Shown here piece by piece: positions 3,254-26,781 of a DNA stretch of 33,331 nt. Position numbers and translations under genes: made by a program. The stretch lies in the IMG/VR virus record IMGVR_UViG_2703718780_000026. One strand, 5' to 3'. The number at the start of each line of letters is the position of its first letter. Position 1 is the first letter of the stretch. Under the pieces are notes generated by a model. That model was not told the origin of the DNA. It saw only the letters and a program-made list of their open reading frames with translations, and made no database searches. This stretch comes from a virus. Its lineage: Duplodnaviria; Heunggongvirae; Uroviricota; Caudoviricetes.

Positions 3254-3525
3254 GTATTCGTATCGAAATTGGCGAACGTTATGTCGTTACCAGTGACAGC
3301 TTTCAGTTTATTCTCCACGAGAAAAAGAGAGCGGAAAGCGGTAAAAACGCCGGTCAGGAATGGCTGGCGGTGGTTGGTTATTACCCGAAATTAAGCCAGC
3401 TCGTTTCCGGCCTGATGCATCACGATATTCTGACCGGAAGCGCAAAGTCTTTTGCTGATTTAAACGCGCAGGTTGAGCAACTCAGCAAGCGTTGTTCAGA
3501 GGCTTTTGGCTCATATGGCCGTTAA
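3250..3525 (+). CDS. Hypothetical early protein
   Basis: 91-aa ORF immediately upstream of A and overlapping its start. Confidence 0.55.
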   Translation: MSIRIEIGERYVVTSDSFQFILHEKKRAESGKNAGQEWLAVVGYYPKLSQLVSGLMHHDILTGSAKSFADLNAQVEQLSKRCSEAFGSYGR

Positions 3526-5800
3526 AGCCTCCGGGCGTTTTGTCCCTCCGTCAGCATTTGCCGCAGGCACCGGTAAGGCGTTTACCGGTGCTTATGCATG
3601 GAACGCGCCACGCGAGGCTGTCGGGCGCGAAAGACCCCTTACACGTGACGAGATGCGTCAGGTGCAAGGTGTTTTATCCACGATTAACCGCCTGCCTTAC
3701 TTTTTGCGCTCGCTGTTTACTTCACGCTATGACTACATCCGGCGCAATAAAAGCCCGGTGCACGGGTTTTATTTCCTTACATCCACTTTTCAGCGTCGTT
3801 TATGGCCGCGCATTGAGCGTGTGAATCAGCGCCATGAAATGAACACCGACGCGTCGTTGCTGTTTCTGGCAGAGCGTGACCATTATGCGCGCCTGCCTGG
3901 AATGAATGACAAGGAGCTGAAAAAGTTTGCCGCCCGTATCTCATCGCAGCTTTTCATGATGTATGAGGAACTCTGCGATGCATGGGTTGATGCTCATGGC
4001 GAAAAAGAATCGCTGTTTACGGATGAGGCGCAGACTCACCTGTATGGTCATGTTGCTGGCGCTGCACGTGCTTTCAATATTTCCCCGCTCTACTGGAAAA
4101 AATACCGTAAAGGGCAGATGACCACGAGGCAGGCATATTCTGCCATTGCCCGCCTGTTTAACGATGAGTGGTGGACTCATCAGCTTAAAGGCCAGCGTAT
4201 GCGCTGGCATGAGGCGTTACTGATTGCTGTCGGGGAGGTCAATAAAGACCGTTCTCCTTATGCCAGTAAACATGCCATTCGTGATGTGCGTGCGCGCCGC
4301 CAGGCAAATCTGGAATTTCTTAAATCGTGTGACCTTGAAAACAAGGAAACCGGCGAGCGCATCGACCTTATCAGTAAGGTGATGGGCAGTATTTCTAATC
4401 CAGAAATTCGCCGGATGGAGCTGATGAACACCATCGCCGGTATTGAGCGTTACGCCGCCGCAGAGGGTGATGTGGGGATGTTTATCACGCTGACCGCGCC
4501 GTCAAAGTATCACCCGACACGTCAGGTCAGAAAAGGCGAAAGTAAAACCGTCCAGCTAAATCACGGCTGGAACGATGAGGCATTTAATCCAAAGGATGCG
4601 CAGCGTTATCTCTGCCGTATCTGGAGCCTGATGCGCACGGCATTCAAGGATAATGATTTACAGGCCTACGGTTTGCGTGTTGTTGAACCACACCACGACG
4701 GAACGCCGCACTGGCATATGATGCTTTTTTGTAATCCACGCCAGCGTAACCAGATTATTGAAATCATGCGTCGCTATGCGCTCAAAGAGGATGGCGACGA
4801 AAGAGGAGCCGCGCGAAACCGTTTTCAGGCAAAACACCTTAACCGGGGCGGTGCTGCGGGATATATCGCGAAATACATCTCAAAAAACATCGACGGCTAT
4901 GCACTGGATGGTCAGCTCGATAATGATACCGGTAGGCTGCTGAAAGACACTGCAGCGGCTGTTACCGCATGGGCGTCTACGTGGCGCATTCCGCAATTTA
5001 AAACGGTTGGCCTGCCGACAATGGGGGCTTACCGTGAGCTACGCAAATTGCCTCGCGGCGTCAGCATTGCTGATGAGTTTGACGAACGCGTCGAGGCTGC
5101 ACGCGCCGCCGCAGACAGTGGTGATTTTGCGCTGTATATCAGCGCGCAGGGCGGGGCAAATGTCCCGCGCGATTGTCAGACTGTCAGGGTCGCCCGTAGC
5201 CCGTCGGATGACGTTAACGAGTACGAGGAAGAAGTCGAGAGAGTGGTCGGCATTTACGCGCCGCATCTCGGCGCGCGTCATATTCATATCACCAGAACGA
5301 CGGACTGGCGCATTGTGCCGAAAGTTCCGGTCGTTGAGCCTTTGACTTTAAAAAGCGGCATCGCCGCGCCTCGGAGTCCTGTCAATAACTGTGGAAAGCT
5401 CACCGGTAGTGATGCTTCGTTACCGGCTCCCACACCTTCTGAGCACGCTGCAGCAGTGCTAAATCTGGTTGATGACGGTGTTATCGAATGGAATGACCCA
5501 GAGGTCGTGAGGGCGCTCAGGGGAGCATTAAAACACGGTCTGAAAACACCAAATCGTCAGCAAAGAAACGGAAGTCCGTTAAAAACACATGAAATTGAAC
5601 CGTCGGCCAGACTGACCCGGTCGGAACGAATGCAAATCACCCGTATCCGCGTTGACCTTGCTCAGAACGGTATCAGGCCTCAGCGATGGGAGCTTGAGGC
5701 GCTGGCGCGTGGCGCGACCGTAAATTATGACGGGAAAAAATTCACGTATCCGGTCGCTGATGAGTGGCCGGGATTCTCAACAGTAATGGAGTGGACATAA
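3515..5800 (+). CDS. A: Replication initiation endonuclease A (rolling-circle, HUH-type)
   Basis: ATG at 3515 gives 761 aa, the same as P2 gpA. HUH-like motif PHWHMMLF and paired active-site tyrosines YIAKYISK, as in the phiX174 A / P2 A family. Confidence 0.9.
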   Translation: MAVKASGRFVPPSAFAAGTGKAFTGAYAWNAPREAVGRERPLTRDEMRQVQGVLSTINRLPYFLRSLFTSRYDYIRRNKSPVHGFYFLTSTFQRRLWPRIERVNQRHEMNTDASLLFLAERDHYARLPGMNDKELKKFAARISSQLFMMYEELCDAWVDAHGEKESLFTDEAQTHLYGHVAGAARAFNISPLYWKKYRKGQMTTRQAYSAIARLFNDEWWTHQLKGQRMRWHEALLIAVGEVNKDRSPYASKHAIRDVRARRQANLEFLKSCDLENKETGERIDLISKVMGSISNPEIRRMELMNTIAGIERYAAAEGDVGMFITLTAPSKYHPTRQVRKGESKTVQLNHGWNDEAFNPKDAQRYLCRIWSLMRTAFKDNDLQAYGLRVVEPHHDGTPHWHMMLFCNPRQRNQIIEIMRRYALKEDGDERGAARNRFQAKHLNRGGAAGYIAKYISKNIDGYALDGQLDNDTGRLLKDTAAAVTAWASTWRIPQFKTVGLPTMGAYRELRKLPRGVSIADEFDERVEAARAAADSGDFALYISAQGGANVPRDCQTVRVARSPSDDVNEYEEEVERVVGIYAPHLGARHIHITRTTDWRIVPKVPVVEPLTLKSGIAAPRSPVNNCGKLTGSDASLPAPTPSEHAAAVLNLVDDGVIEWNDPEVVRALRGALKHGLKTPNRQQRNGSPLKTHEIEPSARLTRSERMQITRIRVDLAQNGIRPQRWELEALARGATVNYDGKKFTYPVADEWPGFSTVMEWT

Positions 5801-6252
5801 TGGCAAAAATTCACGAGGTAAAGCTGCACGCAAAATATTTCGACCTTGTACTGGAAGGAAAGAAACGCGCAGAGTTTCGGAAAAATGACCGTAATTATGA
5901 GCGCGGGGACACGTTGATTTTGCATGAATGGGTGCAGGGTGTGTTTACGGGGCGCAAGGTTGAAGCCCGGATAACAGATGTTACTGACCTGTCAGACTGG
6001 CTGGAAGATTATGTCTTGCTAAGTATTGAGCTGCTTAATACGGGCGCATATAAGATTGTGAACTGGAAAGAACTTAGTGAACGTGGTTTGGTATTCAGAA
6101 TTAATCATGAAATTATGCATCAGCTTGGCCTTGCTGTTATGTATGAACCAGAGACAGGGATGTCTGGTGGTGCAATGGTTGCCACGGATGGGATATGGAA
6201 TTATTCAGATGAACAGATGGAGCATGCAAAGCAAAACGGGTGGCTTGGATAA
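5800..6252 (+). CDS. ASCH/DUF3850-like protein (tentative)
   Basis: ATG at 5800 overlaps the A stop (TAATG). N-terminus MAKIHEVKLHAKYFDLVLEGKKRAEFRKNDRNYERGDTLILHEW resembles the DUF3850/ASCH consensus as I remember it; needs an HMM check. Confidence 0.5.
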   Translation: MAKIHEVKLHAKYFDLVLEGKKRAEFRKNDRNYERGDTLILHEWVQGVFTGRKVEARITDVTDLSDWLEDYVLLSIELLNTGAYKIVNWKELSERGLVFRINHEIMHQLGLAVMYEPETGMSGGAMVATDGIWNYSDEQMEHAKQNGWLG

Positions 6253-6458
6253 TGCACAGAATACCAGGCGAGATACCGCACCATAAAACTAAAAATATCA
6301 AGCTGATGGCCATTGTTCAGCGTTTACAGCGGATTATGGTCAACGAAAATCTGACGCCCGATGAGCTGGTCGGGTGTGCCGAAATAGTCCGGGATAATTA
6401 CGGGCGGTTTAATCATATCGGTCAATCAAGAGTTACGCCACCACCACGCAGACGATAG
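6252..6458 (+). CDS. Small hypothetical protein
   Basis: ATG at 6252 overlaps the upstream stop (TAATG), suggesting translational coupling. 68 aa, no motif recognised. Confidence 0.4.
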   Translation: MHRIPGEIPHHKTKNIKLMAIVQRLQRIMVNENLTPDELVGCAEIVRDNYGRFNHIGQSRVTPPPRRR

Positions 6459-6763: not shown

Positions 6764-7801
6764 ATGGCGGTAAAAGTTGTTGATCTTTTTTGTGGTGCTG
6801 GCGGGCTTACTCATGGCTTAAAGCAAGCCGGATTAGATGTAGTCGCTGGTATTGATATAGAGAGTGCATGCCGGGTTGCTTATGAAATTAATAACAGTGC
6901 GCTTTTTATTGAAAAAGATATTTCTCTGGTGACCAAAGACGAGCTTAACGATCTTTTTGAAGGTGCGCAGGTAAGGGTGTTGGCTGGTTGTGCGCCGTGC
7001 CAACCTTTTTCAAGGTATACGCAAGGGCGCGATAAGAAAAATGATAAAAAGTGGCCTCTTCTTTATGAATTTGAACGTTTAATTCGAGGGGTTAATCCAG
7101 AGATCGTTACAATGGAAAATGTACCTGATGTAACGAAGCATTCTGTTTATAGTGACTTCTATAATAGTTTAGAGGCATTGGGTTATCATGTCTGGGCCGG
7201 AAAGGTTGAATGTGTAGATTATGGTGTTCCGCAAAATAGAGTTAGGCATGTATTATTGGCATCTAAATTTGCGCCGCTTTCATTTGTAAAACCAAAAGTA
7301 GAAAAGGCGGTGACGGTAAAAGAATGCATTGGCGGACTTCCTCCATTAAAGGCTGGTCAAACGGATCCTGTTGATCCTTTACATAAAGCAAGTAAATTAA
7401 GTGATATAAATCTAAAACGTATTGCTTGCTCTAAACCAGGAGGGACATGGCGAGACTGGCCAGTAGAGTTGATTGCATCATGCCACATAAAGAAAAGTGG
7501 GCAAGGTTATGCTAGTGTATATGGACGTATGGATTGGGATAAACCAAGTCCTACAATTACTACGCTATGTTATGGTTTTGGAAATGGCAGATTTGGTCAT
7601 CCCGAGCAAAATCGTGCAATTTCTCTGAGAGAGGCTGCATTGTTACAAACGTTTCCAAAGGATTACGTTTTTACTGCACCCAATGAGAAAGTATCTATAA
7701 AGAATGTTGGTAGGATGATTGGTAATGCTGTACCGGTAAAACTAGGTGAGGTTATAGGTGAGTCAATTATAACTCACCTAAAAGAGCACAATATAGTTTA
7801 A
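6764..7801 (+). CDS. DNA (cytosine-5) methyltransferase
   Basis: ATG at 6764 with GGAG RBS 6 nt upstream. C5-MTase motifs read in order: I DLFCGAGG, IV PCQPFS, VI ENV, VIII QNRVR, X GNAV. 345 aa. Confidence 0.9.
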   Translation: MAVKVVDLFCGAGGLTHGLKQAGLDVVAGIDIESACRVAYEINNSALFIEKDISLVTKDELNDLFEGAQVRVLAGCAPCQPFSRYTQGRDKKNDKKWPLLYEFERLIRGVNPEIVTMENVPDVTKHSVYSDFYNSLEALGYHVWAGKVECVDYGVPQNRVRHVLLASKFAPLSFVKPKVEKAVTVKECIGGLPPLKAGQTDPVDPLHKASKLSDINLKRIACSKPGGTWRDWPVELIASCHIKKSGQGYASVYGRMDWDKPSPTITTLCYGFGNGRFGHPEQNRAISLREAALLQTFPKDYVFTAPNEKVSIKNVGRMIGNAVPVKLGEVIGESIITHLKEHNIV

Positions 7802-8529
7802 GCCTGTAGTCTTGATGATCGTATGTATAAGCGATCATCAAGGTATTTTTGTATGTTTTCTAGTATTTCTTCTAGGTAATGGAAAACTTCATTTTTAAGA
7901 AGTTCAAGGTTGTCAATAGACGTTTCTTGACCCTTGTTTAAAAAGGATTCTGAACCATGCGCCAATGCATTTCTTGCTTTTTTTATGTTTACTAAATTTC
8001 CACCATTATGAGTTTTTGAACGATCTGTTTGAGAGGAAAAACCATAGATACTAGCAACATCCCTAATTTTCTGTGCGTCAACATTTCCAGAAAATAGGGG
8101 GTTTTTATCTGCTTGAACTTGTTTTTTGTGTTCCTCTAGCCATTTTTTTAGAACTAGTTTTGCTATATCACCTTGTGAAAAATCCATGTCACTCACCATA
8201 TGATGGTCTAATTTTTTTAAGGCAAGCTTTGTTAAGCTTTCGCAAATTTTATCGACACAAAGATCATCACACGAATTAAGTTCATTATGTATATCTTCAA
8301 TAGCATTAGATATAGTGGCTTCAATTAAGTTATATAATATAATAAACGCATTGGCTTTTAGGATATGCGTCATTTCGATATCAATTTCGCGGTGTTTACA
8401 TTCGCCTGCTATGCGATCTTTGTACGAGAATGTTGGTCTCTCATCAATAATGAATTTAACAAAATCAAAATATTTTTCTATATCTTCTTTTCTTTCAGAA
8501 AATAAAATTTTGCTGTTCATGATGACCAC
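7798..8529 (-). CDS. Hypothetical protein with C-terminal HEPN-like R-N-x3-H motif
   Basis: 243 aa from a GTG at 8529 (RBS GAGGAG 10 nt upstream), or 240 aa from the ATG at 8520. KKARNALAHG matches the HEPN Rx4-6H signature. Its stop codon overlaps the MTase stop (7798-7801 shared, convergent). Confidence 0.6.
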   Translation of the reverse strand: MVIMNSKILFSERKEDIEKYFDFVKFIIDERPTFSYKDRIAGECKHREIDIEMTHILKANAFIILYNLIEATISNAIEDIHNELNSCDDLCVDKICESLTKLALKKLDHHMVSDMDFSQGDIAKLVLKKWLEEHKKQVQADKNPLFSGNVDAQKIRDVASIYGFSSQTDRSKTHNGGNLVNIKKARNALAHGSESFLNKGQETSIDNLELLKNEVFHYLEEILENIQKYLDDRLYIRSSRLQA

Positions 8530-8535
8530 GGATAG

Positions 8536-9660
8536 TTACTCCTCACTATCATCTAGAACAGTATCTTCGGTCTGCACACCTAAAAGTTTGTCTCTTACAT
8601 ATTCAATACGTGCTTTTACTTTAGGTTTTGAATTTGATGCATCAGATCTTGTATGTTTAATAAACTCTTCTGAGTTTAACCATTCCTCTACCGGTGTTGG
8701 TATTATGTTAGAGTCAGTTTTTAAGGCCAAAGTGGAACCGACAGCTAACGCTTCAAAGCGAATTCTTGGTACAGTGTTTGCCGTTGCATTCTTTCTGAAA
8801 CCATAGGGGAAATATGTTTTGACAAATTCACACATATCTTGAAATTGTGCAGTTAGTTTTTCTTCTTGCTCAGGACTAAATGACTCATTGCGTTGGTCAA
8901 GATATTGGGTTAAGAAAGTATCAACACTTTTTTCAAAGTTAAGATAGTTATCACAATAGGCAAAATATCTAAGAACCAATTCTGGATATTCTCCACGACT
9001 GATCCTAGCATCGTTTAGAGGGCATATTTCCCTAAACAATGGAAACTCTGATAGTCTATTAACAACATCAAGAAAAGGCCCATCATTACTGCCCTGTCGT
9101 TGCTCCATTGTCGTGAGTTTTATTCCACCTGTATTCAATCGATCGAAAATCTCCCTTCTTGCTTCTTCATCACATAATTCAGTGAGTTCAATCATTCGAA
9201 TAGTTTTTCTATCGAATCTAAGCTTACGTGCAGGTGTGAAGTCAGAGTATTTGAATCCGTTGGCTGAAGTTAGCTTTTTTAATCCAGTAAGGGTAAATTT
9301 ATCATTTAGGAAATGATAAAGTGTTCTAATCCTCTGGCTACCATCAACGATTTCCAATCGCCCATCGTCATTTCCGATATCGGCGACAAATACATATGGG
9401 ATAGGAATATTTAGCAAAAGAGATTCAATGAATCTTGATTTTTGAACATTGCTCCAAACAAATTCCCTTTGATAATCAGGTATGTATAGTTCTGCTTGGT
9501 CGGTTTCTAATCCTTTCTGAAATTTGTCAACAATGACACTTACAGGAAACTCTCTGATTTGGTGATCCGTTATTTTTTGCATGGATTTGATCTGGTTATC
9601 CAGGTCAACTTTATCTTCTTCTGTGATCACTTGTTCAGGTTGTCTTGGGACTCTTGCCAT
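8536..9660 (-). CDS. DUF262 (ParB/Srx-like) domain protein, standalone (no DUF1524/HNH domain)
   Basis: ATG at 9660 with AGGAG RBS; 374 aa. Motifs IPDYQREFVW and DGSQRIRTL (the DGQQR-type signature) plus C-terminal FDRLNTGGIKLT. First gene of a two-gene operon, 6-nt gap to the downstream gene. Confidence 0.75.
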   Translation of the reverse strand: MARVPRQPEQVITEEDKVDLDNQIKSMQKITDHQIREFPVSVIVDKFQKGLETDQAELYIPDYQREFVWSNVQKSRFIESLLLNIPIPYVFVADIGNDDGRLEIVDGSQRIRTLYHFLNDKFTLTGLKKLTSANGFKYSDFTPARKLRFDRKTIRMIELTELCDEEARREIFDRLNTGGIKLTTMEQRQGSNDGPFLDVVNRLSEFPLFREICPLNDARISRGEYPELVLRYFAYCDNYLNFEKSVDTFLTQYLDQRNESFSPEQEEKLTAQFQDMCEFVKTYFPYGFRKNATANTVPRIRFEALAVGSTLALKTDSNIIPTPVEEWLNSEEFIKHTRSDASNSKPKVKARIEYVRDKLLGVQTEDTVLDDSEE

Positions 9661-9681
9661 TTGTTTTCTCCTTATGCTTAT

Positions 9682-9706
9682 TTGCAATAAGTTGCATTTG
9701 TTTGCA
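9682..9706 (-). promoter_or_regulatory. Three TTGCA motifs at 10-bp phasing in the leader of the DUF262 operon (candidate operator)
   Basis: TTGCA at 9682-9686, 9692-9696 and 9702-9706 on the + strand (TGCAA x3 on the coding strand), between the predicted promoter and the start codon. Confidence 0.3.
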
Positions 9707-9723
9707 TGCGTAGTTTTATACTG

Positions 9724-9752
9724 ATTTAATCCCACAAGTCCTTTACATGCAA
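9724..9752 (-). promoter_or_regulatory. Candidate sigma70 promoter for the DUF262/HEPN-like operon (TTGCAT, 17 nt, TTAAAT on the minus strand)
   Basis: Reverse complement of 9747-9752 is TTGCAT; reverse complement of 9724-9729 is TTAAAT; spacer 17 nt. About 60 nt upstream of the ATG at 9660. Confidence 0.35.
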
Positions 9753-9802
9753 GGGTTAGAGGCTTAAATGCACCTGCATTAAAACCGCCCCACGAAGCGG
9801 GC

Positions 9803-9821
9803 GGGCGAGGCGGGGAAAGCA
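9803..9821. other. cos cohesive-end site (P2/P4-type 19-mer GGCGAGGCGGGGAAAGCAC)
   Basis: The 19-mer matches the P2/P4 cohesive-end sequence as I recall it, and the following sequence (CTGCGCGCTG.CGGTGGTGCTGATT...TTTTTTCAGCGTCT) resembles the P4/P2 left end. Located between the cargo and Q, as expected for an integrated P2. Confidence 0.7.
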
Positions 9822-9964
9822 CTGCGCGCTGGCGGTGGTGCTGATTTTATTTTTTCAGCGTCTGAGCGCGTCGTGATAGCGTTTAGATTGTGCGCCGGGG
9901 CGTTGGTTTGTCTGCGGGCTGTTTTGCGCGGTGGTGAGCGTGTGAGGGCGTGATGACGGGGTGT

Positions 9965-9991: not shown

Positions 9992-11026
9992 TCAGCCGTT
10001 GTCAGTGTCCAGTGAGTAGTTTTTAAAGCGGATGACCTCCTGACCGAGCCAGCCGTTTATCTCGCGGATCCTGTCCTGTAACGGGATAAGCTCATTGCGG
10101 ACAAAGACCTTTGCCACTTTCTCAATATCACCCAGCGACCCGACGTTCTCCGGCTTGCCACCCATCAACTGAAAGGGGATGCGGTGTGCGTCCAGCAGGT
10201 CAGCGGCGCTGGCTTTTTTGATATTAAAAAAATCGTCCTTCGTCGCCACTTCACTGAGCGGGATAATTTTAATGCCGTCGGCTTTCCCCTGCGGGGCATA
10301 GAGAAACAGATTTTTAAAGTTATTGCGGCCTTTTGACTTAACCATGTTTTCGCGGAGCATTTCGATATCGTTGCGATCCTGCACGGCATCGGTGACGTAC
10401 ATGATGTATCCGGCATGTGCGCCATTTTCGTAATACTTGCGGCGGAACAGTGTGGCCGACTCATTCAGCCAGGCAGAGTTAAGGGCGCTGAGATATTCCG
10501 GCAGGCCGTACAGCTCCTGATTAATATCCGGCTCCAGCAGGTGAAACACGGAACCGGGCGCGAAGGCTGTCGGCTCGTTGAAGGACGGCACCCACCAGTA
10601 AACATCCTCTTCCACACCACGGCGGGTATATTTTGCCGGTGAGGTTTCCAGTCTGATGACCTTACCGGTGGTGCTGTAACGCTTTTCCAGAAACGCATTA
10701 CCGAACACCAGAAAATCCAGCACAAAGCGGCTGAAATCCTGCTGGGAAAGCCACGGATGCGGGATAAATGTCGAGGCCAGAATATTACGTTTGACGTAAA
10801 TCGGGGAGCTGTGATGCACGGCAGCACGCAGGCTTTTTGCCAGACCGGTAAAGCTGACCGGTGGCTCATACCATCTGCCGTTACTGATGCACTCGACGTA
10901 ATCCAGAATGTCACGGCGGTCGAGTACCGGCACCGGCTCACCAAAGGTGAATGCCTCCATTTTCGGGGCGCTGGCGGTCATTTTTTTTGCCGCAGGTTGC
11001 GGTGTTTTCCCTTTTTTCTTGCTCAT
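9992..11026 (-). CDS. Q: Portal protein (P2 gpQ-like)
   Basis: 344 aa, the same as P2 Q. Adjacent to cos and transcribed toward it; start overlaps the P stop. Confidence 0.88.
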   Translation of the reverse strand: MSKKKGKTPQPAAKKMTASAPKMEAFTFGEPVPVLDRRDILDYVECISNGRWYEPPVSFTGLAKSLRAAVHHSSPIYVKRNILASTFIPHPWLSQQDFSRFVLDFLVFGNAFLEKRYSTTGKVIRLETSPAKYTRRGVEEDVYWWVPSFNEPTAFAPGSVFHLLEPDINQELYGLPEYLSALNSAWLNESATLFRRKYYENGAHAGYIMYVTDAVQDRNDIEMLRENMVKSKGRNNFKNLFLYAPQGKADGIKIIPLSEVATKDDFFNIKKASAADLLDAHRIPFQLMGGKPENVGSLGDIEKVAKVFVRNELIPLQDRIREINGWLGQEVIRFKNYSLDTDNG

Positions 11027-12798
11027 CAGTAAAACTCCAGAATGGTGGATGTCAGCGGGGTGCTGATACCGGCGGTGAGTGGCTCATTTAACAGGGCGTG
11101 CATGGTCGCCCAGGCGAGGTCGGCGTGGCTGGCTTCCTCGCTGCGGCTGGCCTCATAGGTGGCGCTACGTCCGCTGCTGGTCATGGTCTTGCGGATAGCC
11201 ATAAACGAGCTGGTGATGTCGGTGGCGCTGACGTCATATTCCAGACAGCCACGACGGATAACGTCTTTTGCCTTGAGCACCATTGCGGTTTTCATTTCCG
11301 GCGTGTAGCGGATATCGCGCGCGGCGGGATAGAACGAGCGCACGAGCTGGAACACGCCGACACCGAGGCCGGTGGCATCAATACCGATGTATTCGACGTT
11401 GTATTTTTCGGTGAGTTTGCGGATGGATTCAGCCTGAGTGGCAAAGTCCATGCCTTTCCACTGGTGACGCTCAAGTATTCTGAATTTGCCACCGGCCACC
11501 ACCGGCGGTGCCAGCACCACGCATCCGGCGCTGTCGCCACGGTGTGACGGGTCGTAACCAATCCATACCGGGCGGGAGCCGAACGGATTGGCGGCAAACG
11601 GTGCATAGTCTTCCCATTCTTCCAGCGTGTCCACCATGCAGCGTTGCAGCTCCTCGAACGGGAACACCGATGCCTTGTCGTCAACAAATTCACACATGAA
11701 CAGGTTTTTAAAATCGTCGGCGCTGTTTTCGCGTTTGAGCTGCTCAATGTCGAACAGCGTGCAGCCGCCTTTCAGGGCGTCCTCAATGGTGACAATCTGC
11801 CGCCACTGGCCGTCCGCACAGAGAAGCCCACCGGCAAGGGCGTTATGACTGACGTCGATTTCCACGCGTTCGGCGGCGCTGGCGCGTCCCCGGTTAAACA
11901 GTTCACCCGACCAGAACGGGTAGGCGTCGTGCGCCAGCGTGGACGGGGTGGAGAAATAGGTCGAGCGCAGGTGACTCTGTGAGGCCATACCTGATGCCAC
12001 CTTACGCAGTACCTGAAAATTCGGGATCCAGAAAATCTCGTCGACGTACAGGTCGCCGTTATGGCTCTGTGCGGTGTTGGAGTTGGTGCCGAGAAAAATC
12101 AGTTTTGCACCGTTATTGCCCAGGACAATCGGGTCACCGGTCAGGTCAACGTCAACCAGACGGGCAAAGGCGATGATGTATTCGCGGAACACATACGCCT
12201 GCGTTTTACTGGCCGACAGAAAAATCTGGTTATGACCGGTTTTCAGGGCACGCAGCAGCGCCTCGCGGGAAAAATAAAACGTCGCGCCAATCTGGCGGGA
12301 TTTCAGGATATCGCGGATGCGGTGCTCAAGCCCGGCGCGATACCAGTGCAACTGATAGTCGAAAGACTGCTCAAAGAAAATCTGCTCCAGCTTTTCGATA
12401 GCCTCGTCACTGAAAAAATTCTTTTTCGGTTTGCGCCGCCCGCCTTTGTTGCGGTTAGCGACGTTCGGATTAAGGTCTGCCTCGTTGCCGGTCTGGCTGT
12501 AGCGATTTACCCGTGCCAGTCGTTCAATCTGGCGTCCCAGCAGGTCAATTTCCTTGAAGTCACCACCGGTTTTCTGCGGTTTGATGATGAGCTGGGTCAG
12601 CCGCGCTTCCAGGCTCATTTCGACACGGCTGATGGGGGCAACGCTGTCCCAGCCGTCGCGCTGTTTCCAGCTCTGCACCGTCGGGCGTTTCATCTGCAAC
12701 ATGGCGGCAATCTGCGGCACGGAAAATCCCTGCCAGTACAGCAGCGCCGCCTGACGACGCGGGTCGTGTAAAAGAGTGGTGTCTGTGGTGATGGTCAT
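11026..12798 (-). CDS. P: Terminase large (ATPase) subunit (P2 gpP-like)
   Basis: ATG at 12798 (MTITTDTTLL...) with GAGGT RBS; 590 aa, the same as P2 P. The tracker's start at 12828 is a TTG. Confidence 0.88.
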   Translation of the reverse strand: MTITTDTTLLHDPRRQAALLYWQGFSVPQIAAMLQMKRPTVQSWKQRDGWDSVAPISRVEMSLEARLTQLIIKPQKTGGDFKEIDLLGRQIERLARVNRYSQTGNEADLNPNVANRNKGGRRKPKKNFFSDEAIEKLEQIFFEQSFDYQLHWYRAGLEHRIRDILKSRQIGATFYFSREALLRALKTGHNQIFLSASKTQAYVFREYIIAFARLVDVDLTGDPIVLGNNGAKLIFLGTNSNTAQSHNGDLYVDEIFWIPNFQVLRKVASGMASQSHLRSTYFSTPSTLAHDAYPFWSGELFNRGRASAAERVEIDVSHNALAGGLLCADGQWRQIVTIEDALKGGCTLFDIEQLKRENSADDFKNLFMCEFVDDKASVFPFEELQRCMVDTLEEWEDYAPFAANPFGSRPVWIGYDPSHRGDSAGCVVLAPPVVAGGKFRILERHQWKGMDFATQAESIRKLTEKYNVEYIGIDATGLGVGVFQLVRSFYPAARDIRYTPEMKTAMVLKAKDVIRRGCLEYDVSATDITSSFMAIRKTMTSSGRSATYEASRSEEASHADLAWATMHALLNEPLTAGISTPLTSTILEFY

Positions 12799-12971
12799 GA
12801 ATACCTCGCCGTGATGAATACACGGCAAGGCTACTGAGTCGCGCCCCGCGATTCGCTAAGGTGCTGTTGTGTCAGTGATAAGCCATCCGGGACTGATGGC
12901 GGAGGATGCGCATCGTCGGGAAACTGATGCCGACATGTGACTCCTCTAATCACTATTCAGGACTCCTGACA

Positions 12972-23917: not shown

Positions 23918-24445
23918 ATGCAGCATTTGATAAATATAACGGCAGGTAATCCAAAAACGGTTGAACAATATCAATTGACAAAGGACTTTGATGTTGTCTG
24001 GTTTTTTTCAGAAGATGGTAAGAACTGGTACGAAGAACAAAAGTATTTTGCTGATGACACGATAAAAATAGCGTACGACAAAGATAATATTATCCGCTAT
24101 GTGGAAAAGGATGTGACAGCTATCAGACCAGATGGATTAAGTGTTGTTGAAGTGCCGGATATTACTGCTAATCGACGGGCGGACATTTCAGGGAACTGGA
24201 TGTTTAAGGATGGTACAGTGATTAAACGAATTTATACGGCAGAGGAATTGCAGCAGCAGGCAGAAAATCGGAAAGCCAGACTTCTTGCAGATGCTGAATC
24301 CGTGATTTTGCCGCTGGAGCGCGCGGTCAGACTGAACATGGCAACAGATGAGGAGCGTAGCCGACTGGAAGCATGGGAACGCTACAGCGTTCTGGTCAGT
24401 CGTGTGGATCCTGCAAATCCTGAATGGCCGGAAATGCCGCAATAA
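23918..24445 (+). CDS. G: Tail fibre assembly chaperone G
   Basis: 175 aa, the same as P2 G; immediately follows H. Confidence 0.8.
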
Positions 24446-24666: not shown

Positions 24667-25260
24667 ATGTTTACTAAGCGACGATTAAAAAATATTAACT
24701 GGGAGGCAAGTTCAGTGATTCTTGCTATGGTTCTCTTTGTTGGAAATATATTTTATACAAATCATCGTGATGATATAAGCATGGAGGCTGAGAGGGACAG
24801 TATCAGAACAATGTTTGCATATGAAATCGCTAATAACCATCGCGCTCTCACTTTTCTTGATAAAACGAGACATATTGGCTTTGACGAAAATTCGGAGCAT
24901 TTTGTTGGCGAGCCTTTTGCCATTAATGTCAAATCATTAGGGGGGCCTCGCTTACAGATTGCATTAAACCAGACTGATAAAGTGTTTAAATCCTACTTCA
25001 GCGAATTAAGTAAGCTTGATAAAGAGGATGTTACTCTTCTTATGGACTATTACCATGAGCAAAGCATCCTGCTGGAGCGTGTAAAATCTACGTTACAGAA
25101 GATGAAAAGTGGTAATGATATTAAAGTTGATATTGATGGTTACTTATTAGAAGAACACTTCATGAATGAGCTTAATCTTTCTAATATTTTGCTTAAACGC
25201 TATAGCCATTTGTTGTCACAATACGCTAAAGAACATAAAACAAAAGATTTACATAATTGA
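24667..25260 (+). CDS. Hypothetical membrane-anchored protein (cargo at the Z/fun position)
   Basis: 197 aa; ATG with AAGG RBS; N-terminal hydrophobic helix SSVILAMVLFVGNIFY; strongly AT-rich codon usage unlike the flanking phage genes; sits alone between G and FI. Confidence 0.6.
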   Translation: MFTKRRLKNINWEASSVILAMVLFVGNIFYTNHRDDISMEAERDSIRTMFAYEIANNHRALTFLDKTRHIGFDENSEHFVGEPFAINVKSLGGPRLQIALNQTDKVFKSYFSELSKLDKEDVTLLMDYYHEQSILLERVKSTLQKMKSGNDIKVDIDGYLLEEHFMNELNLSNILLKRYSHLLSQYAKEHKTKDLHN

Positions 25261-25590
25261 TAATCTGCTAATGGTTATTCATGGGGTAACTATGTTTTAT
25301 ATGTAATCCAACTCAGATGAATTATTGATTCTGGATAATAACCGCAGAGCGGCATATACCCTGACAGGCAAATGTCCGCTTCTTGTTCAAAGCAGACTGT
25401 CAGATTTGATAACTTTTGGGCTATGTAAATTGTCAGTCGGAAAATGAGTGAGTTCAAATCAGGACTGGCGGGCGAATTGCCCGCATTTTCTTTATCTGTT
25501 GTTTCATCCACTGACCAGACAGGTCAAATAGCGTCTCATGCTCTGCACAACAGAAAATACCACTCACCCATTAACCACGGAGTTAGACGG

Positions 25591-26781
25591 ATGAGTGACT
25601 ATCATCACGGCGTGCAGGTGCTGGAGATTAACGACGGCACCCGCGTCATTTCCACTGTATCCACTGCCATTGTCGGCATGGTCTGCACGGCCAGCGATGC
25701 GGATGCGGAAACCTTCCCCCTCAATAAACCGGTGCTGATTACCAATGTGCAGAGCGCAATTGCAAAGGCCGGTAAAAAAGGCACGCTGGCGGCATCGTTG
25801 CAGGCCATCGCTGACCAGTCAAAACCGGTCACCGTTGTCGTGCGTGTTGAAGACGGCACCGGCGACGACGAAGAAACGAAACTCGCGCAGACCGTTTCCA
25901 ATATCATCGGCACCACTGACGAAAACGGTCAGTACACCGGACTGAAAGCCCTGATGGGGGCTGAGTCGGTTACCGGCGTTAAACCGCGCATTCTCGGCGT
26001 ACCGGGACTGGACACCAAAGAGGTCGCCGTCGCACTGGCATCGGTATGCCAGGAACTGAATGCCTTCGGGTATATCAGCGCATGGGGTTGTAAAACCATT
26101 TCCGAGGTGAAAGCCTACCGCCAGAATTTCAGCCAGCGTGAGCTGATGGTTATCTGGCCGGATTTCCTCGCATGGGATACGGTTACCAGTACCACCGCCA
26201 CCGCGTATGCCACCGCCCGTGCGCTGGGTCTGCGCGCTAAAATCGACCAGGAGCAGGGCTGGCATAAAACGCTGTCCAACGTCGGGGTGAACGGTGTTAC
26301 CGGCATCAGTGCATCCGTCTTCTGGGATTTGCAGAAGCCAGGCACTGATGCTGACCTGCTGAACGAGGCAGGCGTCACAACGCTGGTTCGCCGCGACGGT
26401 TTCCGTTTCTGGGGTAACCGTACCTGCTCTGATGACCCGCTGTTCCTCTTTGAAAGCTACACACGCACCGCGCAGGTACTGGCCGACACGATGGCTGAGG
26501 CGCACATGTGGGCTATTGATAAGCCCATCACCGCAACGCTGATTCGCGACATCATTGACGGCATCAATGCCAAATTCCGTGAACTGAAAAACAACGGTTA
26601 TATCGTGGATGGCACATGCTGGTTCAGCGAAGAATCCAACGATGCGGAAACCCTCAAGGCCGGAAAACTGTATATCGACTACGACTATACCCCGGTGCCT
26701 CCTCTCGAAAACCTGACCCTGCGCCAGCGTATTACTTCCAGATACTTGGCAAGTCTGGTCACTTCGGTTAACAGCAATTAA
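25591..26781 (+). CDS. FI: Tail sheath protein FI
   Basis: ATG at 25591 with GGAG RBS gives 396 aa, the same as P2 FI. The tracker's N-terminal extension from 25444 is rejected. Confidence 0.88.
   Translation: MSDYHHGVQVLEINDGTRVISTVSTAIVGMVCTASDADAETFPLNKPVLITNVQSAIAKAGKKGTLAASLQAIADQSKPVTVVVRVEDGTGDDEETKLAQTVSNIIGTTDENGQYTGLKALMGAESVTGVKPRILGVPGLDTKEVAVALASVCQELNAFGYISAWGCKTISEVKAYRQNFSQRELMVIWPDFLAWDTVTSTTATAYATARALGLRAKIDQEQGWHKTLSNVGVNGVTGISASVFWDLQKPGTDADLLNEAGVTTLVRRDGFRFWGNRTCSDDPLFLFESYTRTAQVLADTMAEAHMWAIDKPITATLIRDIIDGINAKFRELKNNGYIVDGTCWFSEESNDAETLKAGKLYIDYDYTPVPPLENLTLRQRITSRYLASLVTSVNSN

Follow-up and report, generated by a model that had tools for sequence, protein, structure and literature searches.

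We identified a three-gene cassette, made up of a DUF262 gene, a HEPN gene and a C5-cytosine DNA methyltransferase gene, in a 33,331-nucleotide stretch of DNA from a tailed virus (Caudoviricetes; IMG/VR record IMGVR_UViG_2703718780_000026), the whole of which we call the window. The cassette is cargo in a P2-like prophage or phage, and we hold with moderate confidence that it is a restriction–modification-like (R-M-like) anti-phage system in which the methylase marks self, while a DUF262 nucleoside triphosphate (NTP) switch reads DNA and licenses a HEPN ribonuclease (RNase). A bolder form of this reading, which we put forward only tentatively, is that of an R-M system without a DNA nuclease, whose switch would read the methylation of one phylum-wide motif and answer with RNA cleavage and abortive infection, and which would have moved between P2-like and lambdoid prophages, DISARM operons and the chromosomes of at least seven phyla. 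The three genes are arranged as follows (lengths in amino acids, aa).

6764-7801, plus strand: C5-cytosine DNA methyltransferase, 345 aa (the reading frame is open from 6674, and the lengths of homologues support a start at 6764).
7798-8529, minus strand: HEPN protein of the MAE_28990/RiboL-PSP clade, 240-243 aa, starting at GTG 8529 or ATG 8520.
8536-9660, minus strand: DUF262 protein, 374 aa, with a ParB/Srx-like NTP-binding domain at about aa 30-180 and a helical C-terminal domain at about aa 184-360.

A pattern scan for relatives, with one genome taken per species, gave 523 confirmed relatives, and we analysed the best 80 loci, in which the DUF262 protein is 45-71% identical across phyla (Proteobacteria, Bacteroidota, Acidobacteriota, Planctomycetota, Verrucomicrobiota, Cyanobacteria and candidate phyla radiation bacteria); HEPN and methylase neighbours were called by single-pass phmmer with the window proteins as queries. 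A HEPN homologue lies directly downstream of the DUF262 gene in 79/80 loci, the exception being a 1.2-kb contig, and the commonest spacing is a 4-nt overlap (26 loci), with most others within about 10 nt. Such tight coupling fits the proposal of an earlier note on this DNA that the DUF262 protein is a sensor or regulator acting through a separate effector. That note also named the HEPN gene as the only operon partner, which is literally correct and yet incomplete, as a conserved third partner, an orthologous C5-methyltransferase (E 1e-100 to 1e-197), adjoins the pair in 68 of the 80 loci, in three arrangements.

41 loci: methylase convergent and downstream of the pair, as in the window.
25 loci: methylase ahead of the pair on the same strand, overlapping the DUF262 start by a median of 4 nt.
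2 loci: methylase downstream on the same strand.

Because the linkage survives this rearrangement of gene order, it indicates that the methylase and the pair depend functionally on each other. The C5-methyltransferase is more distant in one further locus (L046), and three two-gene loci with full flanks (L044, L050 and L063) have no adjacent methylase. In four loci outside those 68 (L028, L029, L033 and L078) a protein of about 1330 aa directly follows the HEPN gene, and the L033 copy (1328 aa) scores as DrmA; upstream of the pair, a 1340-aa protein in L078 scores as DrmMI, the class 1 methylase of DISARM, and a 1376-aa open reading frame (ORF) occupies the same position in L033. By these matches, the DUF262-HEPN pair is embedded in a DISARM operon in all four (extents 1688-11824 in L033 and 155-10071 in L078), again beside a methylase.

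The methylase of the window scores highly against Pfam DNA_methylase (PF00145, 3.1e-54), TIGR00675 dcm (1.3e-36) and the PADLOC models DrmMII (1.4e-93) and MTase_II (1.6e-89), and with the canonical motifs FCGAGG (I), PCQ (IV), ENV (VI), QNRVR (VIII) and GNAVP (X) in its translation it is predicted to be active. Among 64 complete triplets, its target-recognition region (about aa 180-290) is conserved like the catalytic core, with majority-residue frequencies of 0.57-0.87 per 15-aa block, which suggests that a single target motif is shared by the whole family, an unusual feature for R-M systems. We sought this motif through PDB homologues and the source names of 120 homologues, which gave matches to the catalytic core and generic names only. 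The same methylase family can also stand beside another partner: in Phocoenobacter skyensis (L090, 3501-6527), a 60%-identical methylase is convergent not with a DUF262-HEPN pair but with a 660-aa HATPase_c_3 (GHKL) protein that faintly matches SduA_C, the C-terminal family of the Shedu nuclease. The DUF262-HEPN pair thus fills the slot of a restriction partner. In the window the methylase and HEPN genes are convergent, with a 4-bp overlap of their 3' ends (stop codons), and a scan for terminator-like sequences revealed one element here.

7809-7844, plus strand: putative terminator, a 14-bp hairpin ahead of a T-rich run, past the methylase stop and inside the HEPN 3' end.

This hairpin likely terminates the methylase transcript.

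All three DUF262 hallmarks noted earlier (IPDYQREFVW, DGSQRIRTL and FDRLNTGGIKLT) are present in the DUF262 protein, and Pfam GmrSD_N/DUF262 covers aa 55-188 at E 7.4e-29 and 101.7 bits (cut-off 33.2 bits). Among 96 homologues the invariant residues of the N-terminal half are P61/Y63/Q64/R65, D106/G107/Q109/R110 and F172/R174/L175/N176, in the YQR, DGSQR and FDRLN motifs, and those of the C-terminal half include R299/R301/E303 and T337/S339/D340/S342/N343/S344; 79 of 82 sequences have DGSQR instead of DGQQR. The protein belongs to phrog_2598 (1.9e-130), a family of unknown function, and a 99.5%-identical E. coli copy of the same length is labelled 'DUF262 domain-containing protein' in RefSeq.

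Its description as a protein of only 374 aa without an HNH or His-Me finger domain was confirmed. A search with hidden Markov models for a concealed DUF1524 or HNH domain found none, which rules out an ordinary GmrSD enzyme, and aa 189-374 had no Pfam or NCBIfam match even at E<=0.1. An AlphaFold2 model built from an alignment of 96 sequences (pLDDT, the predicted local distance difference test, 83.4) has an alpha/beta N-terminal domain with strands at 33-39, 90-94, 102-106 and 153-159 and an all-helical domain at 184-360; structure searches (Foldseek) with this model matched ParB-CTPgS 7bm8, BrxU 7p9k, Noc, KorB and sulfiredoxin; none of the matches was a nuclease fold. Relatives share the compact form. 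We found 4546 proteins at E<=1e-5, the top 120 of which are 339-454 aa long and carry PF03235 only, and about 205 clusters at E<=1e-30 in a 50%-identity library; among the best 150 cluster matches listed, proteins are no longer than 439 aa (full-length ones about 335-440 aa), alignments run end to end and none has an added C-terminal domain. The layout is like that of NsnA, a ParB-DUF262 domain followed by a helical 'ParBDB' DNA-binding domain that is homologous to the middle domain of SspE (PMC12065111). Standalone DUF262 proteins lacking DUF1524 had been presented as unusual, but they form a recognised class, with PD-T4-2, Menshen NsnA and Dazbog among its members (PMC10952713, PMC12065111).

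The HEPN protein matches Pfam HEPN_MAE_28990 (PF18737, 1.2e-19) and HEPN_RiboL-PSP (9.8e-07) and falls in phrog_3846 (1.3e-79), whose function is unknown. Its Rx4H motif, R183-N-A-L-A-H188-G, is conserved across phyla: in the RNxLAHG of homologues N, L, A, H and G are invariant and R nearly so. No PADLOC model, PD-T4-2_B included, matches the protein even at E<=10, and a sequence search against the PDB returned no match. The HEPN Shine-Dalgarno sequence, GAGGAG, falls within the final codons of the DUF262 gene, a position that suggests translational coupling of the two genes. As a separate observation, the catalytic Arg is replaced by Ile (INDLAHG) in the HEPN copy of the cyanobacterium Microseira (L050, 7083-7778), which may be inactivated; a dead active site was looked for in the three methylase-free loci with full flanks and found in this one only.

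We suggest the following sequence of events, in which DNA binding and a switch driven by NTP binding or hydrolysis are proposed on the pattern of SspE, BrxU and ParB. The C5-methyltransferase would methylate one fixed motif in the DNA of the lysogen. The DUF262 protein, a predicted ParB-like NTP-binding switch with a putative DNA-binding helical C-terminal domain, is encoded in an operon with HEPN, and the two would probably form a complex. On meeting incoming or replicating unmethylated DNA, DUF262 may undergo an NTP-dependent conformational change that licenses the Rx4H RNase of HEPN, by analogy with GmrSD, SspE and BrxU and with HEPN effectors. The RNase would then cut tRNA, rRNA or mRNA and so halt the making of phage, which the infected cell would probably not survive.

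An experimentally validated relative is PD-T4-2 (Vassallo et al. 2022), likewise an accessory defence locus of E. coli (ECOR65), in which a two-gene operon encodes a DUF262 protein that is about 360 aa long and lacks a nuclease, and then a HEPN protein; it defends against T4, as was shown in K-12 and by deletion in ECOR65 (PMC9519451). The window DUF262 protein matches PD-T4-2_A (PADLOC PDLC04027) at E 4.3e-34, aligning aa 61-354 with profile positions 56-356 of 363. The HEPN proteins are alike at the level of the Pfam clade only, PD-T4-2B giving HHpred matches to RiboL-PSP (97.8%) and MAE_28990 (96.9%), and PD-T4-2B is shorter, at about 165 aa (its HHpred match runs no further than residue 163, and both ORFs together take up 1540 nt), than the 240-aa HEPN of the window. 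The window HEPN is not counted as an orthologue of PD-T4-2_B because no PADLOC model matches it. The cloned PD-T4-2 fragment also has no methylase, whereas one stands beside most loci of the window family. These comparisons make the cassette a relative of PD-T4-2 and not its orthologue.

The operon type had also been foreseen on paper. Anantharaman et al. 2013 (Biol Direct 8:15, Table 1) list the same three genes in a one-line computational note, offering neither experiment nor mechanism, on the MAE_28990 operon, in which a PF18737 HEPN with an Rx4-6H motif is adjoined by ParB-like and DNA methylase genes; the prophage hotspot, the two gene orders, the conserved target-recognition region of the methylase and the DISARM embedding are absent from that work. 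Thus the cassette type was already predicted in 2013 and its two-gene relative was validated in 2022, and our comparisons add evidence that points to an obligatory methylase partner with conserved specificity, which makes the hypothesis of an R-M-like system with an RNase output concrete. A literature search within the library covered found no experimental study of the DUF262, HEPN and methylase form. Rousset et al. 2022 do not mention DUF262, and WonAB and DARNA (PD-T7-3) were set aside as their papers concern other systems.

The best full-length PADLOC match of the DUF262 protein is Menshen NsnA (5.4e-56, profile 34-377 of 385), which has the same ParB-DUF262 and ParBDB layout. Despite this top score we rejected identity with Menshen, as the NsnB ABC-ATPase and the NsnC inPIN effector are absent from the window, where a HEPN partner stands instead and the sole other neighbours are the C5-methyltransferase and P2 portal genes, and neither NsnB nor NsnC neighbours the gene in 79/80 related loci. 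In GmrSD, BrxU and SspE, an N-terminal DUF262 domain carries the same QR, DGxQR and FxxxN motifs, and BrxU is among the best structural matches, but those enzymes have a DUF1524 His-Me nuclease and the window protein has none, carries DGSQR and not DGQQR, and is tied to a methylase and an RNase-type effector; an ordinary GmrSD Type IV enzyme is likewise rejected, as DUF1524 is neither fused to the protein nor encoded as a separate GmrD. Like classical Type II R-M systems, the cassette has a C5-methyltransferase convergent or co-transcribed with its partner genes, but a recognisable DNA endonuclease is missing, as we found no PD-(D/E)xK, HNH, GIY-YIG or PLD domain. The methylase scores as DISARM DrmMII, but the window contains no DrmA, DrmB or DrmC. 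The Menshen paper itself raised the idea that methylases beside ParB-DUF262 systems might mean that the domain targets non-modified genomes (PMC12065111).

Several points weigh against an R-M-like system with an unmethylated-DNA trigger. We infer every mechanistic step that goes beyond synteny and motifs. PD-T4-2 needs no methylase to block T4 (PMC9519451), a phage with glucosylated hydroxymethylcytosine (glucosyl-hmC) in its DNA, and the DUF262-HEPN core therefore needs no unmethylated-site signal intrinsically; two of the two-gene loci (L044 and L063) keep intact motifs with no methylase adjacent. The embedding in DISARM would be equally expected of a modification-dependent, BrxU-like complement. 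The HEPN protein has no PADLOC match and hence is no PD-T4-2_B orthologue, and, since the name of nuclease has been given to ParB-like domains, DNA might be nicked by the DUF262 protein itself.

Some of these points lead to a Type IV-like alternative, which we regard as unlikely, although it fares better than the others. Here DUF262 would recognise hypermodified phage DNA (hmC, glc-hmC or other) and activate HEPN, and the methylase would belong to the prophage as a gene in its own right, serving for instance in anti-restriction or epigenetic self-protection. The DUF262 domains of GmrSD, BrxU and SspE do sense modified DNA (PMC10952713), PD-T4-2 was selected on T4, methylase-free two-gene loci exist, and the pair sits within DISARM as BrxU does within BREX. 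An unrelated gene, however, would not be expected to recur as the same orthologous methylase in most loci, whatever the phylum and in either of two gene orders, and often so close that stop and start codons overlap. A sensor that tolerates 5-methylcytosine (m5C) gains nothing from this linkage, and one that recognises m5C would be suicidal. The GmrSD-style sensing of modified DNA that the earlier note had raised is thus disfavoured because the methylase is strictly linked, which points instead to R-M-like self-protection.

Less probable still is that the DUF262 protein itself restricts unmethylated DNA, acting as a ParB-like nickase or nuclease, in which case HEPN would be a second effector that backs it up at the RNA level, or a suicide module. 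Anantharaman et al. 2013 name the partner a 'ParB nuclease' and propose such a back-up or suicide role for HEPN in R-M operons; a PADLOC Type II restriction endonuclease model (REase_II) weakly matches the DUF262 domain (2.5e-08), and the conservation of all three genes would also accord with it. In the DUF262 proteins studied so far, however, the DUF262 domain is the NTPase or sensor and DUF1524 does the cleavage (PMC10952713), and the model of the window protein, with no nuclease fold, is closest to the ParB, Noc and KorB folds of the CTP-switch (cytidine triphosphate) type.

The R-M-like reading of the cassette also accords with where it is found. At the left end of the window an integrase-like ORF runs off the edge and is followed by cox-like genes, and the P2-like features that frame the cassette are the following.

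3473-5800: replication gene A.
9804-9822: cos sequence GGCGAGGCGGGGAAAGCAC, an exact P2-type 19-mer with a single occurrence in the window.
9992-11026, minus strand: portal gene.
11026-12828, minus strand: terminase gene, after which the scaffold and capsid genes come next.

We take the 19-mer GGCGAGGCGGGGAAAGCAC to be the P2 cohesive end; it lies 144 bp upstream of the DUF262 start codon, which makes the cassette the final cargo ahead of the packaging site. The cassette lies between gene A and cos where GC content is low (34-44%, compared with 53-61% on either side), in the slot that in P2 itself houses old and tin. This gene A-to-cos/portal slot is a published P2 defence hotspot (PMC9519451, PMC9122126). 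The flanks of the cassette were matched in 2159 of 5426 complete E. coli genomes, of which four only have the cargo and at least three more carry, in this slot too, a 78%-identical variant of the three genes. The earlier note had allowed that homologues might prove to be chromosomal housekeeping ParB-like proteins, and what we found is rare prophage cargo. A partition or housekeeping ParB is further ruled out by the lack of an HTH (helix-turn-helix) or ParBc Pfam match, of a parA gene and of parS-type repeats.

Copies occur in other phages and prophages too. Peduovirus P24B2 has one, with a DUF262 protein about 70% identical to that of the window, and in a lambdoid prophage of Acinetobacter baumannii (L088-L089) the cassette lies beside cI/cro. 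A third variant of the three-gene cassette was observed in the same P2 A-to-portal slot of Shigella sonnei 53G (HE616528.1) and relatives (L083-L087); for the methylase of this variant the index lists 1115 blocks across the collection. We consider it improbable, and the least likely of the alternatives, that the cassette serves a non-defence role as a prophage addiction or toxin–antitoxin-like (TA-like) module, with a HEPN toxin checked by DUF262 and/or the methylase, or as ParB-like handling of P2 DNA near cos: addiction is a role that R-M-like modules can play, TA pairs with HEPN toxins exist (Anantharaman et al. 2013) and the cassette does adjoin cos, but it is also found outside P2, in the Acinetobacter prophage, DISARM and chromosomal loci of many phyla, most P2-like prophages do without it, so that it has no core phage role, and ParA, parS-type repeats and an HTH domain are all absent.

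The stretch between cos and the DUF262 gene was read directly for elements of expression.

9661-9803, minus strand: region that separates cos from the start codon and precedes the DUF262-HEPN operon.

A Shine-Dalgarno sequence, AAGGAG, lies at 9668-9673, 7 nt upstream of the DUF262 ATG (9660-9658), and just upstream of it is a perfect inverted repeat, CTTATT-GCA-AATAAG (9677-9691, minus strand), which may be an operator. A scan of 9661-9803 found no sigma-70 promoter scoring >=9/12. A longer, GTG-initiated DUF262 ORF reaching 9822 is not credible, as it runs into the cos site.

Other ORFs were observed in the window. At 5764-6252 (plus strand), a 162-aa ORF whose start overlaps the end of gene A matches DUF3850/ASCH (1.3e-17), DUF7415 (2.3e-14) and phrog_1812. 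ASCH domains are RNA-binding. This ASCH-like gene is present in the window-type hotspot and absent from the variant hotspot (L002), and is a separate accessory gene. Between it and the methylase gene lies a 72-aa ORF (6240-6458, plus strand) with no Pfam match, and at the equivalent position of a near-identical E. coli prophage (L001, 5953-6156) is a shorter ORF annotated as 'hypothetical protein'. A 197-aa ORF at 24667-25260 (plus strand), assigned to phrog_3829 (unknown function) and with no Pfam or PADLOC match, sits in another island of low GC content (41-45%), flanked by the genes for tail-fibre assembly (23918-24445) and the tail sheath (25444-26781). Its position corresponds to 'hotspot 2' (fun/Z) of P2, and it may be another defence cargo gene.

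Nuclease-less DUF262 proteins such as those of PD-T4-2, Menshen and Dazbog raise the matter of how they sense and signal, and this cassette encodes the likely signal and the likely output beside the sensor. With three genes it is compact and native to E. coli; the signal is likely a methyl mark set by a dedicated methylase and the output likely a HEPN RNase. If the R-M-like logic is false, the cassette would be another PD-T4-2-like system of the hotspot. If it is true, methylation-based reading of self and non-self can be wired to an RNA-level abortive effector, and the P2 defence hotspot would hold one more defined type of cargo, with the copy in Shigella sonnei 53G and related records among its instances.

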